Of a DNA stretch of 64,000 nt, positions 1-35,029 are shown piece after piece. Where the stretch lies: positions 4,128,001 through 4,192,000 of the forward strand of contig OY762007.1 in the NCBI GenBank assembly GCA_963665115.1, written 5' to 3'. This stretch comes from an uncultured Rivularia sp. GTDB lineage: Bacteria > Cyanobacteriota > Cyanobacteriia > Cyanobacteriales > Nostocaceae. The first letter of the stretch is position 1, and every line of letters starts with the position of its first letter. The notes beneath the pieces are model-generated. The model worked only from the letters and a program-made list of their open reading frames with translations, made no database searches and had not been told where the DNA came from. The position numbers and the translations under genes were made by a program.

Positions 1-917
1 TATATATGAGCGGCTGCTAATTCTTGTAAAGGATAGGTGCAGTCAATAACCACTCGCAGTTTACCCGCTTCAATCAATTCGTTGAGATAAAGCAAATCGG
101 CAGTGTTGGGTTGAGCAAGAATGAATTTAGCTTTTTGACTTCCGAATAAACTTGTTAGGGCGTTCAACGCGATAGCGTTGCGGGCTATCGCCACAATATT
201 TTGCAGATTCGGCAGGGTTGTAATGTAGATGCCATTGGGTTTAAGGACTTTCTTACAGTTATCAAAAGTCTGCTTACCAACTGCATCAAAAACAATATCG
301 TACTGCACCTGATTTTTAGTAAAGTCATGAGTCGTATAGTCGATGAGAGAATCGGCTCCGAGTGACTTAATAAAGTCTAGGTTTTTACCGCTACAAACTC
401 CGGTGACTTCTGTCGATAAAGCTTTGGCAATTTGAACTGCAAAAATACCTACTCCACCGGAAGCTCCATTAATAAGTACGCTTTGTGAAGGTTGAATGTT
501 GGCTTTGTCTCGTAGCGACTGTAAAGCGGTAAGGGCTGCGACGGGTAAAGCTGCTGCTTCTTCAAAGCTGATATTTTTTGATTTAATCGCAGCGACTTTT
601 TGAGGTACTGCTGCGATTTCGGCATAAGCGCCTCCAGGTACACCAAGTGAGCCATAAATTTCATCTCCCACTTGAAAACCAGTGACTTGAGAACCCACTT
701 CTAGAACAACTCCAGCCAAATCAAATCCCAGAATCATCGGAAATTTATTCCCACTAATGATTTTGAGCATTCCTTTGCGAATCTTCCAATCAATCGGATT
801 CACTGCCGCAGCATGAACTTTCACTAACAACTCGTCGGCTTTGATTGTTGGTGCTTCTACTTCTTCATATCGCAAGACATCAGCACTGCCGTATTCTCGG
901 ATGACTACTGCTTTCAT
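1..917 (-). CDS. NAD(P)-dependent zinc-type alcohol dehydrogenase / quinone oxidoreductase family protein (3' end outside window)
   Basis: Manual translation of the minus strand from ATG at 917: [15 protein letters not shown]...[16 protein letters not shown]...GFDLAGVV...[20 protein letters not shown]; the frame stays open to the window edge. Confidence 0.85.
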
Positions 918-1316
918 AATCCCACACTCCACCCCAAGCTATATTTCCCTAAATTCAGTTTGACATTTTTTATTCCCAGACAGCGATTGCAATAACAAGC
1001 AGACTATGGGAATATAAGAGGAAATCCCAACTAATAGCAAATAATTCTCACTAAGCAGAAAATAATTATTTGCCTCTAGCCATTATTGAATCTACACTTC
1101 AGCCGTTTTTTATTTGTTTATGAAGTAAAAGTTAAGAAAAGAGTATTTGCGTTTTCTGTTCAAAAAAAAGTGATATGTTAGTTACAGAATTGAATAAGAA
1201 AAACAATGTGGGCTAGTTCTTCGCCGTAGCGGCATTCTAATTTTCAGTTTTCAGTTCTTTATATATATAGAAGCGTTTGAAATAGAAATTAAGCGGGTTT
1301 CGAGTACAGTAAAATG

Positions 1317-3410
1317 GGTTATGTCGAAAATGCCGAAAATGGCTGAGACTCTTTCCAAAACTTGTTTTGAGCCGAGTGCAGCAATACTAGTACCTCGTTA
1401 CATAAATACCAGCCCCCCAGTGAAATAATACTAGTACCCCTACCCGGAAAAAAACTTTTAAAACTTCATAAATCTTTTACAGCAAAGCTTTCAGGATTTG
1501 AGTGCAAATTTAATAAAACTAATAAACCCAAGCAGACGGGATTTAAAAGTTCGCGAAAAAGCGCCTGATATAACTTAGACATCGCCAAACACCAAACGAG
1601 TCAAATAAACCTTAGACACGGTTGGTGAGTGGAGGGATGAGATATTACTACCTTTACAAAAACCCTATATATCTCGTAAATTGTTTCATACGAACACTTT
1701 GGTTCAACCAATTGTTCATCCAAAACAATACGAAAATTAGTCAACTTTTAGTCAACTAATGCAAGACATACAGGGCAAGGTTTTTAGTGATTTTGATGTT
1801 CCCGCTACTTCTGATGGCAGTTATTGGGGTAGGAAGAAGATAGTAGACGCTACTAAAGAACATCACAATATGAAATTTGAGCAAGAGCTAATAAAAGTTA
1901 ATCAGAGACTCAAATCTAGTAAAGCGAAAGTATCTATTGAGGCAAGCAAAGGGGGAATACAGCTTAGAGCTACACTGCCCCTTAAACCAGATGACACTCA
2001 TAAGCAAGGCAAAGAAACAAAGCAATACAAGATATCTTTGGGTATCCCAGCAAATTTTGATGGTTTAAAGACTGCTGAAGAAGAAGCCTACGAATTAGGA
2101 AAACTAATAGCTCGTAAAACTTTCGTTTGGAGTGAAAAATATTTAGGGCAGCAAGCTAAAAGAAAAAACAGCATTACTTTTAAAGAGTTTTATGAACAGT
2201 TCGAGAAAATATATTTTCAAACTCGCAAAAGGACAATTAGAAGCGAACACAGTTTTCTGGATTATCAAAGAAAATTTAAAAGATATTTTTACTCTAATGA
2301 TGTTGTAACAGCAGAATCTCTGAATCTAAAAATCAAGCAAACGAACACCTTTAACACTAGACGTATTGCAATTATTATTGCTCATTTTATTTGCAAATCG
2401 CTTGAGATCAAAACTGATTTTTCTGACCTGAAAATTAAAAAAGAAGTAAAAAAGAGAGATATACCAGAAGATAAAACAATAGTTAATGCAATCAACTTGA
2501 TTGATTATTATTTAGAACAGATAAAACCGTGCAACAAAGACAAATCATCAAAAGTTTGCCAGCGCAATAAGCTTATTTTTGGATTATTAGCTGTTTATGG
2601 TTTGCGTCCTAGAGAGATATTTAATCAACCCGATCTAGATTGGTTAATGTCATCAGAAAATCAACATAATACTTTTAAAGTTCATGAATCCAATAAAACC
2701 GGATACAGAGAAGTTTTCCCTTTTGTACCTGAATGGCTCGAATTATTCGATCTGAAAAATCAAGAGAATCTCAATTTACTTAAAAAGTATATTTTAGAAG
2801 AGCAAAGCGCGATTGACTTACATTATAAAGTTAGCAAGCTAGGAGATTTTTTTAAATCATATAAACTTTTATTTACGCCATATGACTTGAGGCACGCTTG
2901 CGCCATAAGAGCGCACTTACAAGGAATTCCGATTAAGGCAGCCGCTGACAATCTAGGACACACAGTTGAGATACATACTAAAGTTTATCAGCAATGGTTC
3001 GGACTTGAAAACAGAAGAAAAGCTTTTGATAATGCTTTTGATGAGTCAAGCAAGCTTGAACAATGCGAAAAACAGCTTGCTGAAGCCAGAAAGAGAATAG
3101 CTGAATTAGAAACCGAAGTCACGCGATTAAGCCTGCAAAATAGTATGATTTATAGCTAAATAACCTAGCGAACTACTATGCCTCTCCTCTGAATGCTTCA
3201 AGCATCAACAAAAGATAGCAAGATATACAAACTATTGCAGATATTGTATATTATTTGACAATCATATCTGCATTGAACATTTTCAATATTGCAGACAGAG
3301 TAAAATAAAGGTGCATTTATGACTCGTAATCAAGCAACAAAGCAACAATAGTAAATAATGGTGCAAAATATTAGTTCTACTCTACCAGGCGATCGCCACA
3401 CAGGTTATGT
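1317..3410. mobile_element. Putative XisA-type excision element in the intergenic region upstream of nifB (boundaries tentative)
   Basis: Contains an XisA-like recombinase. Candidate 8-bp direct repeat GGTTATGT at 1317-1324 and 3403-3410 (2086 bp apart, similar in size to the other minimal elements here). An 8-bp match alone could be chance. Confidence 0.45.
1759..3159 (+). CDS. XisA/XisC-family tyrosine recombinase
   Basis: 466 aa. LQLRATLPLKP and SLGIPANFDGLKTAEEEAYELG N-terminal motifs; catalytic GLRPRE, YDLRHACAIR, LGHT..H..VY; C-terminal coiled coil. Confidence 0.9.
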   Translation: MQDIQGKVFSDFDVPATSDGSYWGRKKIVDATKEHHNMKFEQELIKVNQRLKSSKAKVSIEASKGGIQLRATLPLKPDDTHKQGKETKQYKISLGIPANFDGLKTAEEEAYELGKLIARKTFVWSEKYLGQQAKRKNSITFKEFYEQFEKIYFQTRKRTIRSEHSFLDYQRKFKRYFYSNDVVTAESLNLKIKQTNTFNTRRIAIIIAHFICKSLEIKTDFSDLKIKKEVKKRDIPEDKTIVNAINLIDYYLEQIKPCNKDKSSKVCQRNKLIFGLLAVYGLRPREIFNQPDLDWLMSSENQHNTFKVHESNKTGYREVFPFVPEWLELFDLKNQENLNLLKKYILEEQSAIDLHYKVSKLGDFFKSYKLLFTPYDLRHACAIRAHLQGIPIKAAADNLGHTVEIHTKVYQQWFGLENRRKAFDNAFDESSKLEQCEKQLAEARKRIAELETEVTRLSLQNSMIYS

Positions 3411-3502
3411 AAGGGTAACAGCAATTTTATTCCTCTCGAATTAATTCTCTTTTCCCTCTTCCTCTGCGTACTAGTAGTTCATTTCATTAGTTTTGATGGG
3501 TA

Positions 3503-3869
3503 CGTAGTTGCGCTTCAGCGCCTCATATTCCGGTATCCGGAGGCGCTGAAGCGCAACTACGAACAATTATTAACCCCTCATAACTTATGTGGCGGAGTAC
3601 TAGTAGTCCTTTGCATTAATTCTGAGGGGTACGTTTTCGACCTAACGTCGGGAGACGTAGCACTGCTACGTCTCTACAACCCATTAAAACAAATGAAAAG
3701 GACTACTAGTAAGGTTTTTTTATCCGCTCATAACCTCGCATAACTTATGTGATGGAATACTAGGCGATCGCCACTTCACTCGCTTATTAATTGATATACA
3801 AGAATAATCAAGGTTCGTAGTAAGGGTTTTAACCATTAATTAGAGGACTAAAGTCCTTACTACGAACCT
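3503..3869. repeat. Cluster of short palindromic/MITE-like repeats upstream of nifB
   Basis: Perfect 22-bp inverted repeat 3503-3524/3540-3561, 15-bp inverted repeat 3811-3825/3855-3869, GAGACGTAGC/GCTACGTCTC palindrome, repeated TACTAGTA. Confidence 0.7.
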
Positions 3870-4296
3870 CTATGAGAGTCAATAGTAAATATTTAGTCAA
3901 CTACTTTTGTAAATCAAATTAGCAATTTAGCTGAAATAGATGAGTTACAAAATAAGCTGATTTAGCCAACTTTCAGTCCATTTTATTAAGCCCAAAAGTG
4001 AAAGCGTTGCTATATAAGACTTTTGACTGCTTGGCTTAGTAATGAGATAGCACCATGCCCTGTAAATAGAAGTCGCGGTGGTCAGAGCTTAATAAAGGTA
4101 ATTCCAGTTATCTCAAGCGTTGATACACACCAGCCGAGAAACCGGAATTTACCTCTCGATTAACTCACGCTCCATAAAGATGGCGAGTTTTTCGACTAAA
4201 GCGTAAACTGCCGCTACTTCGATTCCTGGGTAAAAGCAGAAGCGATGGCATCTCCCACTAGGCAATTTGTCCAGTGACCGACGAACGCGAAACTAA

Positions 4297-5757
4297 ATGA
4301 CATCACCGTCTACTCCAACAGGAATCTTCACCCCTTCCGAAAGCGAATCTACAGCTACACCAGCGAAAGCTAAAAAAGGTGGTTGTGGAACTGGCTGCGA
4401 CGATAATAGCAGCCCTAGCATCGAAATAGATGAGAGAACAAAAGAGCGGATTGCAAAGCACCCTTGTTATAGCGAAGAAGCTCATCATCATTATGCAAGA
4501 ATGCACGTTGCCGTTGCTCCTGCCTGCAACATTCAGTGCAACTACTGCAACCGAAAGTATGACTGTGCGAACGAAAGTCGTCCCGGAGTAGTTAGCGAAC
4601 TACTCTCACCAGAAGAAGCAGCACAAAAAGTTCTGGTAGTTGCAGGTAAGATTCCTCAAATGACAGTGTTAGGAATCGCTGGTCCTGGCGACCCCTTAGC
4701 AAACCCGGAAAAGACCTTCAGCACCTTTGAGAAGATTAATAAAGAAGCACCAGACATTAAATTGTGTCTATCAACCAACGGTTTGATGCTACCGGATTAT
4801 GTAGAACGGATTAAGGAATTAAACGTTGACCATGTAACAATTACAATCAACATGGTCGATCCTGAAATCGGAGCCAAAATCTACCCTTGGGTTCACTATA
4901 AGCGCAAGCGTTACAGAGGAATTGAAGGAGCAAGAATTCTGCATGAAAGACAGATGGAAGGCTTAGAACTTCTTCGCGAAGCAGATATTCTATGCAAAAT
5001 TAACTCTGTATTGATTCCAGGAGTTAACGACCATCATCTTCCCGAAGTAAACAAAGCTGTCCGCGAACGAGGCGCATTTATTCACAATATTATGCCCTTG
5101 ATTAGCGCCCCAGAACACGGTACTCACTTTGGATTGAACGGACAAAGAGGTCCTACTTCTAAAGAATTAAAAGAAGTACAAGACAAATGTTCTGGTAACA
5201 TGAAAATGATGCGTCATTGTCGCCAGTGTCGTGCAGACGCAGTAGGATTATTAGGAGAAGACCGCAGCCAAGAATTTAGCAAAGAAAAATTCATGGAAAT
5301 GACTCCAGAATATAATCTGGAGCAGCGTCAAGAAGTTCATCAAGGCATCGAGAAAAATATACAAGAACTCGAAGCAGCCAAAAAAGGACTTGAAACCTTC
5401 GATTTAGAACTTAGCGGCGAAAAAATGTTGCTAGCAGTAGCAACCAAAGGTGGTGGTATAGTTAACCAACACTTTGGACATGCCAAAGAGTTTCAAATAT
5501 ACGAAGTTGATGGTAGAAAAGTTGAATTCATCGGCCATCGCAAAGTTGACCATTTCTGTCAAGATGGATACGGTGAGGAAGCCACTTTAGAAAATATCAT
5601 AAAAACACTTGCTGATTGTCAAGCAGTATTGGTTTCCAAAATTGGGGATTGTCCCAAAGAAGAACTTCAAAAAGCAGGAATAAAAGCTGTTGAAGCTTAC
5701 GACGTAATTGATAAAGTTGCTCTAGAATTTTACAAAGAAGCAATTAATAATCAGTAA
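4297..5757 (+). CDS. nifB: FeMo-cofactor biosynthesis radical SAM protein NifB
   Basis: HPC motif, CNIQCNYC radical SAM motif, [12 protein letters not shown]-terminal NifX-like domain (VNQHFGHA). Confidence 0.98.
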
Positions 5758-5891: not shown

Positions 5892-6227
5892 ATGGCTTAC
5901 AAAATTACTAACAAATGTATTTCCTGCGATTTGTGTAAAACGATATGTCCCGAGAACGCTATCAAAATAGTTGATCAACGTCCCTGGATTGACCCCGAAC
6001 TTTGTACAAATTGTGTTGATAGTATTTATTCAGTACCCCAATGTAAAGCAGGTTGTCCTACATTTGACGGCTGCGTGGAAATAACATCCGATTATTGGCA
6101 AAACTGGTTTGAAAATTACAAAAATGTAATATCACAAGTCACTAATAAAACAGATTATTGGCAAAACTGGTTCAATATTTATTCGCAAAAATACTCCGAA
6201 CAGTTAGTAGTAGACAGTGAGCAGTGA
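5892..6227 (+). CDS. fdxN: nif-associated ferredoxin FdxN
   Basis: CISCDLCKTICP and CTNC...C...CP 4Fe-4S motifs, cyanobacterial DYWQNWF tail, position between nifB and nifS. Not interrupted by an element here. Confidence 0.92.
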   Translation: MAYKITNKCISCDLCKTICPENAIKIVDQRPWIDPELCTNCVDSIYSVPQCKAGCPTFDGCVEITSDYWQNWFENYKNVISQVTNKTDYWQNWFNIYSQKYSEQLVVDSEQ

Positions 6228-6363: not shown

Positions 6364-7577
6364 ATGCAAAAAAAAGACTGTATTTATTTAGATAATAACG
6401 CTACTACTAAAGTAGATCCGCAAGTTGTAGAGGCAATGTTGCCCTACTTAACCGAAAATTACGGCAATCCTTCCAGTATGCATACCTTTGGAGGAGGAGT
6501 CGGTAAAGCAGTAAAGCAAGCTAGAGAAAATATTGCAGCTTTGCTTGGTGCAGAATCCTCTGAAATTGTCTTTAACAGTGGTGGAACTGAAGGAGATAAC
6601 GCTGCTATTCGGGCTGCACTCCAAGCACAGCCTGACAAAAAACATATTATTACCACCCAGGTAGAACATCCCGCAGTACTTAACCTTTGCAAACAACTGC
6701 AAAAGCAAGGCTACAGAGTTACTTATCTTTCGGTGAATCGTCAGGGGGACAGCTAGATTTACATGAATTGGAAGAAGCACTAACTCACGAAACCGCTTTG
6801 GTAAGCGTTATGTATGCTAATAACGAAACTGGCGTGATATTCCCGGTAGAAGAAGTTGGCAAACTAGCTAAAAAACATGGCGCACTGTTTCATGTTGATG
6901 GAGTCCAGGCTGTAGGGAAAATTCCCCTTAATATGAAAGACAGCACCATTGATATGCTGACGCTCTCAGGCCACAAAATGCATTCACCCAAAGGGATTGG
7001 CGCATTATACGTGCGAAAAGGAGTCAGATTCCGTCCTTTGATAATCGGTGGAGGGCAAGAACGCGGCAGACGTGCGGGAACCGAAAACGTGCCTGCAATC
7101 GTAGCTTTAGGTAAAGCTGCCGAACTCGAACTGCTACATTTAGAAGAAGCAGGAAAAAGACAAAAAAGTTTACGCGATCGCCTAGAACAAGCTATAATAG
7201 AATCAGTTGAAGAATGCGAAATCAATGGTGGCGCAACGCAGAGATTGCCTAACACTACAAATATTGGTTTCAAATATATCGAAGGCGAAGCAATTTTACT
7301 ACTACTCAATCAGCACGGAATCTGTGCATCCAGCGGTTCCGCTTGTAGTTCCGGTTCTTTAGAGCCTTCCCATATTTTACGGTCAATGGGAGTACCCTAT
7401 ACAACTTTGCACGGTTCCATTCGCTTTAGTCTTTCTCGTTACAATACTGAAGCTGATGTTGATGCAGTATTAGCAGTACTACCCGCCATCGTGCGCCGTC
7501 TACGCGAGCTATCACCCTTCAAAAACGATGATGCGGCTTGGCTAAAAGACCAAGAACAAGCTTTAGCTCAACACTAA
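6364..7577 (+). CDS. nifS: Cysteine desulfurase NifS (apparent frameshift in a G run at about 6744-6748)
   Basis: Overlapping ORFs 6364-6756 (YLDNNATT) and 6687-7577 (SGHKMH PLP lysine, SSGSACSS catalytic Cys). They join if two G are removed from CAGGGGGACAG, giving QGQLD. Confidence 0.93.
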
Positions 7578-8797: not shown

Positions 8798-11080
<2,283 letters not shown>

Positions 11081-11161
11081 TAAATCTACTTTTTATAATT
11101 TAAAACTTTCAAAAAAAAATATCTAATTTTAACTATAGGATTAATATTTAGGTATTAAAAG

Positions 11162-11192
11162 ACCTGCTTTTATTCACAAAAGCGGGTTTTTT
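11162..11192 (+). terminator. Intrinsic terminator-like hairpin inside nifH element 2, oriented in the nif direction
   Basis: ACCTGCTTTT / AAAAGCGGGT stem (one U-G pair on the + strand) followed by a T run. Confidence 0.5.
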
Positions 11193-11265
11193 AGTTATTG
11201 TTAATCAATCAAAAATATTTATTTATGATTATTCCGAATTTACAATGTCCAATTCCCAAATTCCT

Positions 11266-12711
11266 TTACTTAGTAAATTTTGATAATAATGTTGTGAGTT
11301 GATTTATTTGTGCTTGCTGTTGCTCAATGATTGCTTTCAATTCATCAACTTGAGAATTATTTTGTTGTGTATTTTCTTTGATACAAGATAACTCTGGATT
11401 AATATCGCTAGCAACCATTGATGCATCGCGGTAATGTTTACGACTTACTTCTTCTGAATGCTCGCACCATGCGTTAACAATATGGGTTTCTCGACCTAAA
11501 TCATATATTTGATGAGAAACAAAAGTATGCCGAGTATTATTAACAGGTAAATATTTTGATACTTTTCCTTGCTCTACTAAATCTTTAACTAATCCTATAT
11601 AATGAACGCCTCTAGAGGTTTTCCCATACCATTTTTCGCTCAAAGTTACTTGATGTATAGGTTTACCATTACCTTTAACTGAAAACACGCAATCATTGTC
11701 TTCTCCTTTTTTTAATTTGCTTAATATTTTCCATAATTTACTATCTCTTTTCATGGGAAAGAATCTTATTGTTTCATTCTTAGTAGGCTTGAATATACGT
11801 GATTTACTATCAAAAGATTTTCTGATAATAATTCTTTCCTCATCAAACCTTATATCTTGCCACCATAAAGCTAAAGCCTCACCATTTCTACATCCAGTTA
11901 AAAATTTAAATGCGATTAATGGATAATATTTACAAAGTTTGGGATGAGTTTTAAAAGCTTCCATAATAATTTCAGCTTCTTCCCAACTAAAAGCTTTCTT
12001 TTTATCTAATAATTCATTATCTTCTGTATTTGATTTATCTTGATTTATTTCTTTTATTCTCTTTTTTGCAATTAAAGTCTCTTTTAATCCTAAAAAAGGA
12101 TTTTTACCGATATAAACATCTTTGGCTATAGCGTAACTGTATGCTCTTTCTAAAGCGCTCACAAGAGATTTTACATCATGAGCGTTACGATTTTTAATTA
12201 ACCAATTAAATATTTGATTTGGGTCATATCCTACTTCTTTGATAGCAGAATTTAAATAATTAAGAAATGCACCTTTATAACTATTGATAAAAGTTGTTTT
12301 AGCTAGTCTATGTTCGGAAAATTCACAATACATTTGCCAAATTTCCAAAATTGAAGGATTGGGTTTTACTGTACCTCCACTTTTATCTTCTGAAGCGATT
12401 CTAACTAATCTGATACGTGCCTTCAATCCGTACTCCTCTAAAACCTGTTGATACCTCTGTTCGTTAAATGCACCGCTGGTATCTACAAGCCATCCTAATT
12501 CCAATTCTTGCTGCAACCTCCGAGCAATTTTCATGGCTAATTCTTCATTATCAGAAATGGCTTCTAAATTAATAGACTTCTTAAATTGCTTTCCTGCAAA
12601 ATACTGTTTAGGAAAAACAACTCTAAATCTACCTTTTAAATTTTCAATAGTGACTTGTTTTATATTCTTTTTACTATTATCTGATTCAAGGTACATATTC
12701 TGTATACTCAA
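11266..12711 (-). CDS. Tyrosine recombinase (phage-integrase type with N-terminal arm-binding-like domain) of nifH element 2
   Basis: 481 aa. FLTGCRNGEALALWW, KPTKN, NTRHTF, HSEEVSRKHY. Lacks the XisA-type N-terminal motifs. The true start may be the ATG at 12696. Confidence 0.87.
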   Translation of the reverse strand: MSIQNMYLESDNSKKNIKQVTIENLKGRFRVVFPKQYFAGKQFKKSINLEAISDNEELAMKIARRLQQELELGWLVDTSGAFNEQRYQQVLEEYGLKARIRLVRIASEDKSGGTVKPNPSILEIWQMYCEFSEHRLAKTTFINSYKGAFLNYLNSAIKEVGYDPNQIFNWLIKNRNAHDVKSLVSALERAYSYAIAKDVYIGKNPFLGLKETLIAKKRIKEINQDKSNTEDNELLDKKKAFSWEEAEIIMEAFKTHPKLCKYYPLIAFKFLTGCRNGEALALWWQDIRFDEERIIIRKSFDSKSRIFKPTKNETIRFFPMKRDSKLWKILSKLKKGEDNDCVFSVKGNGKPIHQVTLSEKWYGKTSRGVHYIGLVKDLVEQGKVSKYLPVNNTRHTFVSHQIYDLGRETHIVNAWCEHSEEVSRKHYRDASMVASDINPELSCIKENTQQNNSQVDELKAIIEQQQAQINQLTTLLSKFTK

Positions 12712-12758
12712 AACAATTTTAAGTATTGCAAAAGTTGAATTTAAACTAATTGCAATAA

Positions 12759-14595
<1,837 letters not shown>

Positions 14596-34990: not shown

Positions 34991-35029
34991 TCATCTTCCC
35001 AAAAAATATATCCTTGTATGGTCTACACC

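Follow-up and report, generated by a model that had tools for sequence, protein, structure and literature searches.

What does a recombinase of the excision-element type interrupt when every reading frame around it is whole? The question is raised by a 64,000-nucleotide stretch of DNA from an uncultured Rivularia sp. (GCA_963665115.1, contig OY762007.1, positions 4,128,001 to 4,192,000 of the forward strand; the window), in which an intact XisA-family recombinase gene, xis (1759-3159, a 466-amino-acid open reading frame (ORF) with its catalytic motifs present), stands by itself, with a zinc-binding dehydrogenase gene on one side and nifB on the other. An earlier note on this DNA had described this arrangement and had found no interrupted ORF on either side; we find the same, with nifB whole at 4297 (TIGR01290). 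The Xis-type element is real, and it lies, as that note proposed, in non-coding DNA upstream of nifB and not in a coding sequence (CDS). It splits the predicted leader of nifB (hence leader element), is 2,405 bp long and is likely excised during heterocyst differentiation, which would reconnect the nif operon with its complete promoter and leader.

The ends of the element were placed by comparison with relatives, which, in a search of 41 genomes, align to the window through 1644 and then again from 4042. The closest genome with an empty site, G007, aligns to the 1644/4050 join as a single 1,395-bp block at 96.8% identity, and the short direct repeats ATGAGATA that bound the element are present there as a single copy. 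A nifH element is still present in G007, which is therefore not a heterocyst-DNA assembly.

The element and its parts are as follows.

1645-4049, plus strand: Xis-type element, 2,405 bp, GC content 0.35, precisely absent in G007
1637-1644, plus strand: left direct repeat (attL), ATGAGATA, with the 7-bp core TGAGATA at 1638-1644
1645-1650, plus strand: inner arm TTACTA, reverse complement of TAGTAA at 4037-4042
1738-1758, plus strand: tandem TAGTCAACT repeats directly before xis, kept in 12 left ends
1759-3159, plus strand: xis, XisA/XisC-type tyrosine recombinase of 466 amino acids, on the same strand as nifB and 114 bp inside attL
3160-3873, no strand assigned: variable non-coding filler with two strong hairpins, 3500-3564 and 3811-3869
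3883-3983, plus strand: right-end copies of the AGTCAACT-type repeat
4042-4049, plus strand: right direct repeat (attR), ATGAGATA

The earlier note had instead drawn a 2,086-bp element between two copies of GGTTATGT, at 1317 and 3403, with a GAGTACA at 1302 just outside; both motifs exist, but the GGTTATGT pair does not mark the ends, and alignment of the in-silico 1324/3411 join to G007 shows a gap that the single-block alignment of the 1644/4050 join does not have. The note had itself called this 8-bp repeat not statistically compelling on its own, and it is at chance level: 28 8-mers are common to both intergenic stretches, GGTTATGT occurs 190 times in the genome, among the 28 relative loci no other has two copies, and removing 1325-3410 would delete the promoter (boxes at 1374 and 1500, the AATACTAGTACC motifs at 1383 and 1427, the -10 and the predicted +1).

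Among the 25 site-bearing genomes of the genus (27 searched), 11 are occupied and 14 empty, and the junction is common to all 11, two of which have the element ends on separate contigs. The nine complete elements span 1,781-4,529 bp, and in each xis begins 115-116 bp in, on the nifB strand. The att sites have the anatomy typical of tyrosine recombinases, a 6-8 bp overlap between inverted arms: around the 7-bp TGAGATA core the arms match at 6 of 6 positions in six of the 11 elements and at 3-5 of 6 in the other five. Inverted arms and AGTCAACT-type repeats are kept at both inner ends and the filler is not kept, its two hairpins being members of genome-wide repeats that are missing in close relatives. 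The TAGTCAACT repeats, resembled by a stretch before the xis of the nifN element, are candidate arm-type recombinase sites. Contigs of four sequencing runs reproduce both junctions in the occupied state, and the left junction is common to 10 other genomes and one metagenome contig. A 52-bp tandem duplication in L021 (G001; 6101-6152) begins exactly at the right crossover point and is either an assembly artefact or a recombination footprint, and the 4.5-kb version of the leader element in L038 (G024) carries a multicopper oxidase gene as cargo (1159-2850).

The leader element encodes an intact XisA/XisC-like recombinase. Xis gives a weak Phage_integrase match and shows the catalytic pattern R283, K313, Y375-x-x-R378, H401 and Y410, with Y in place of the tetrad H as described for XisA/XisC (PMC3610870; this and the other sources given by PMC number, as well as bioRxiv 629832, are cited from the portions available). 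It has 616 homologues at E<=1e-60, two of them named XisC (56%), and is 40-58% identical to seven other Xis proteins of the same genome. Its gene lies near one edge of the element, at the beginning in its co-oriented arrangement, 114 bp from attL; many rows of Table B in PMC4874684 likewise place xis of published tyrosine elements 108-132 bp from the edge, a spacing common to either xis orientation, so xis may have its own promoter. The ratio of nonsynonymous to synonymous substitution rates (dN/dS) was 0.066-0.147 in all 28 pairs of the eight intact genes, a set that omits G003 (frameshift) and G016 and G022 (incomplete). The leader Xis proteins fall into a single clade (Shimodaira-Hasegawa-like approximate likelihood ratio test, 100) in a quick tree of 59 rows, and P0004, a Rivularia sp. 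PCC 7116 protein by its source, is grouped within it.

The DNA on the two sides of the element is organized as follows.

1301-1308, plus strand: CnfR-type box 1, CGAGTACA, upstream of the element, a match to the TGAGTACA motif
1373-1380, plus strand: CnfR-type box 2, followed by two A/C-rich AATACTAGTACC motifs at 1383 and 1427 (span 1373-1440), conserved across the genus
1499-1506, plus strand: CnfR-type box 3, TGAGTGCA, conserved in all 58 aligned loci
1566-1574, plus strand: extended -10 (TG-n-TATAA) of the predicted nifB promoter, conserved in the 58 aligned loci
1581-1644, plus strand: 5' part of the predicted nifB leader from the predicted +1 at 1581, with helices P1 and P2 and the 5' strand of P3
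4050-4296, plus strand: 3' part of the predicted nifB leader, opening with the 3' strand of P3 and a conserved GAAGTCGCGG motif
4297-5757, plus strand: nifB, first gene of the nif operon, uninterrupted, TIGR01290

Left of the 1644/4050 junction stand all three GAGTRCA boxes (1302, 1374 and 1500), the two AATACTAGTACC motifs and the extended -10, and no GAGTRCA box, AATACTAGTACC motif or TG-n-TATAA was found inside the element or in 4050-4296; the element therefore separates a whole promoter from the operon. The box motif TGAGTACA is described in bioRxiv 2025.04.01.646610, and box 2 and the AATACTAGTACC motifs appear to correspond to motifs 1B, 2A and 2B published there. The 58 aligned loci share a TGAGTRCA box, the extended -10 and an invariant ATCGCCAA, with the extended -10 lying 66 bp past box 3, and nowhere else in the genome do a box and an extended -10 stand at this spacing. 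Three TGAGTACA-type boxes are thus followed by an extended -10 without a -35, and PMC8510180 reports for nifB promoters that an extended -10 is present and a -35 absent; a sigma-70 scan, which requires a -35, did not return the extended -10. A CnfR-like gene (ferredoxin plus helix-turn-helix) is present in the genome. The spacing predicts a nifB transcription start at about 1581, which on the joined allele would be 311 nt from the nifB ATG (median 304, range 157-528, 73 loci). Published starts, mapped at -282 (PMC3141674), -296 (PMC3610870) and -328 (PMC4284476), fall left of the junction, which sits at -247.

In Anabaena variabilis and Nostoc PCC 7120 the CnfR-dependent nifB promoter has, in the portions available (PMC4284476, PMC8510180, bioRxiv 2025.04.01.646610), the same make-up, with three boxes of the TGAGTACA type, A/C-rich motifs, an extended -10 and a leader of about 300 nt, and in A. 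variabilis it is the main driver of the nif cluster (PMC4284476). There it is contiguous with nifB, whereas here it would stay 2.4 kb away until excision. Those portions describe no leader motif past the start site.

The junction lies about 64 nt past the predicted +1, 247 bp before the nifB ATG, within a 50-bp near-invariant motif. This target is present in 369 of 389 family genomes, and the exact 18-mer spanning the junction in 192 of 388 genomes and 58 of 68 genera, the large genus g67 having mostly a one-base variant. It belongs to a motif of about 100 nt that opens the nifB leader (1581-1644 plus 4050-4090, alignment A1), a candidate regulatory RNA in its own right, to which the match of covariance model R1 begins at 1581. 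A structure drawn by eye on 64 sequences has 94% paired cells, where slid controls have 36-50%; its P1 and P2 show two-sided changes (36 cells, five pairs; 0/500 and 23/500 shuffles), and its P3 and closing helix show one-sided changes only. RNAalifold independently recovers P1 and part of P3, and single leader sequences fold no better than shuffles (z-scores -0.5 to -1.2). The modelled structure is plausible, and the crossover would fall in its predicted P3 loop.

The leader motif is near-invariant, apparently uncatalogued and, in the genomes searched, limited to heterocyst formers. A blastn search found it in 26 of 26 family genomes, with weak matches in 2 of 174 others; a covariance model found it in 6 of 6, with a weak match in 1 of 114. 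Two Rfam scans, one of them over 201 nt at E up to 10, matched no family to the leader and gave chance-level matches elsewhere only. The query used found no NifB match in five genomes that lack the motif. In L229, from the small genome G094, the promoter and P1 are kept and the rest of the leader is lost, and nifB begins about 80 nt past the predicted +1. NifB is a radical-SAM enzyme, and some short words around the P3 helix resemble the SAM-III (SMK box) riboswitch; membership is not supported on present evidence, with no Rfam score and the motif lying far from the ribosome-binding site.

This motif has received a Xis-type element at least once more. G066, a complete genome from another genus, has a 5,575-bp Xis element 3 bp further on in the same motif, and its congener G123 has an empty leader site.

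L145, 1795-7369: G066 element, with repeat AGATAGCA

The cargo of the G066 element comprises a 44%-identical Xis, xisH/xisI on the opposite strand, an AbiEii-domain gene and a terminator-like site; inverted arms are not evident. A single clade for the leader Xis and G066 Xis proteins was rejected (approximately unbiased test, p 5.8e-55, 19 proteins), and the leader motif was therefore invaded twice independently. Among 24 non-genus family genomes with weak or double matches G066 alone had another split leader, about 15 weak-scoring g49 genomes lying outside this check.

An exact occupied-site pattern, one that one-base variants of the empty site can also satisfy and that shifted sites escape, retrieved 10 loci from 185,579 genomes, five from Rivularia sp. 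and five from cyanobacterial bins, and 1 of 43 metagenome loci was occupied. On a flank tree of 24 rows, occupancy requires 5-6 changes. Strict vertical inheritance of xis is unsupported, although close pairs match: xis and host-flank distances are uncorrelated (Mantel rho 0.05, p 0.40, eight genomes). The element probably moved between lineages as well as being lost. Besides G007, 13 genus genomes lack it with small length changes; among 15 empty alleles, 14 differ in length in this way, by -2 to +4 and in eight variants, at the core or next to it, and that of G007 alone is canonical.

Empty alleles with length changes: L024, L026, L028, L031, L035, L036, L016, L037 and L039-L044

Two of these, L040 and L044, are nifB leader copies with different core variants in a single bin (G042), possibly a strain mixture.

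Teaching and surveys alike present heterocyst rearrangements as repairs of coding sequences. The leader element shares with the XisA/XisC-type elements (nifD/XisA, hupL/XisC and nifH/XisG; PMC4874684) the recombinase type, short direct repeats, a xis about 115 bp from the edge and co-oriented at the element start, and a target in the nif cluster, and it has the 1.7-2.4 kb recombinase-only size of the small nifB-170, hupS-610 and nifD-227 elements of Rivularia sp. PCC 7116. It differs from them in lying in non-coding DNA, with every flanking ORF intact and a promoter separated from its operon. All 101 elements in that 2016 survey were defined by an interrupted CDS, as its method required, and 44 xis-like genes were left unassigned; in the portion available its two nifB elements lie at CDS positions 170 and 952, and the nine elements that Table B gives for Rivularia sp. 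PCC 7116 are all in genes. Calothrix sp. NIES-4101 (PMC11249958) likewise has a heavily fragmented nif cluster, which recombinases beside short repeats restore, and circles were detected there; its listed events all repair coding fragments, and its nifB upstream region is described as a contiguous 1.1 kb with the CnfR element. The available portion of bioRxiv 629832 describes coding repairs only, and literature searches, with subscription papers outside their scope, found no non-coding heterocyst element.

By analogy with this family, Xis would act on the two cores while heterocysts differentiate, and recombination between them would free a 2.4-kb circle and rejoin the promoter and leader to nifB-fdxN-nifS-nifU-nifH. 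The leader would suit a mobile element, being conserved across heterocyst formers and presumably needed in heterocysts only, as are nif coding sequences. Before excision the nifB promoter would face xis, whose ATG lies 178 nt after the predicted +1, and excision could therefore be self-timed.

Neither an excision junction nor an excised circle was seen in the contigs and assemblies searched. Among the joints listed for seven contig-form runs (9 of 9; 15 of 78) the 1644/4050 joint was absent; joints of the nifH elements were equally unseen, contigs of run X1 spanning those elements without one, and the contig data therefore do not discriminate for or against excision. A circle-junction pattern gave one match in 27 genus assemblies, to unrelated sequence. 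In viral contigs no relative of Xis was found, and none of 39 pattern matches was similar to the element, four att-like ones lying inside a long phage ORF. Other observations weigh against the excision reading. A search of 900-4400 turned up no intrinsic terminator, so read-through is possible. The xis of G003 has a 1-nt frameshift in its assembly, where L023 shows an extra T near codon 147 or so. The missing correlation between xis and host distances also means that purifying selection on xis may reflect spread between lineages and not host need. G094 has lost the leader motif's 3' half and in genus g49 that half has diverged, so it is not universally required. Finally, PMC8510180 puts the conserved boxes 300-600 bp upstream of where transcription starts, a figure that agrees with their distance here from the ATG (390-590 bp) but disagrees with that from the predicted +1 (80-280 bp).

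Much of this would fit a mobile passenger that is tolerated without excision, with transcripts reading through xis into nifB and Xis kept only by movement between Rivularia lineages. The co-orientation of xis with nifB and the small size of most versions (1.8-2.8 kb) would ease such read-through in a stretch where no terminator-like site was found, and the frameshift in G003, the uncorrelated distances, the 5-6 changes in occupancy and the dispensable 3' half of the leader in G094 all point the same way. We nevertheless consider this explanation rather improbable, because mobility itself requires excision and because some versions measure 4.5 or 5.6 kb, the 5.6-kb one carrying xisH/xisI on the opposite strand as well as a terminator-like site. 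Moreover, in A. variabilis downstream transcripts are almost abolished when an 11-kb nifD element stays unexcised (PMC4284476), and the G003 frameshift may be an error, since similar indels of the window assembly are absent from run X1 contigs.

The earlier note had proposed a different mechanism, in which excision assembles a promoter by placing upstream CnfR sites beside a core promoter located right of the element. The location of all GAGTRCA boxes left of the element and the box distances of PMC8510180 would suit this, but the family-conserved extended -10 stands on the same side as the boxes in the 58 loci, none occurs in the element or in 4050-4296, and the mapped starts also fall left of the junction. 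The promoter would thus be complete before excision; the wrong ends led to the wrong mechanism, which we judge very unlikely. Hardly credible is a decayed insertion or assembly artefact without current activity, for although indel errors occur nearby in the assembly, both occupied junctions recur in contigs of four runs, the left one also in 10 other genomes and a metagenome contig, and xis is intact and under purifying selection.

Heterocyst excision of the leader element would extend such rearrangements to regulatory DNA and place one cut upstream of the entire nitrogenase operon, and it is a candidate explanation for some of the 44 unassigned xis genes. As no reading frame is broken, the viability of a xis mutant would depend only on transcription, making this a cleaner test of a selfish versus a regulatory role. 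Only tentatively do we go further and join these elements into one sequence of events, in which, in the vegetative chromosome, the CnfR-activated nifB promoter would first transcribe xis, Xis would remove its own gene, and the cut would re-form a structured leader specific to the heterocyst clade and needed for nif expression, at a site invaded at least twice independently, with the eight empty-site variants as scars of, or escape from, continuing invasion. Such self-timing, if true, would make the element a DNA switch for the whole nif operon.

Other recombinase elements and assembly features lie near the nif genes. Apparent frameshifts at 6744 (nifS), 10021 (the xis of a nifH element) and 13876 (nifD) of the window do not recur in the contigs of run X1, which omit 2, 2 and 3 letters there, respectively, and are probably assembly errors. 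nifH is split by two small recombinase elements, 9161-11079 and 11058-12800, with candidate repeats TTAGAATT and TCCGCGAAGGAAAA, and a further nifH piece lies near 34995. A different Xis element is inserted about 200 bp inside nifB in L017, L018, L020, L013 and L168; several of these have an empty leader, and some genomes have both elements. Just before a nifK fragment, three tandem Xis-family genes on the minus strand (G000:C1:4194793-4200314) suggest nested or stacked elements.

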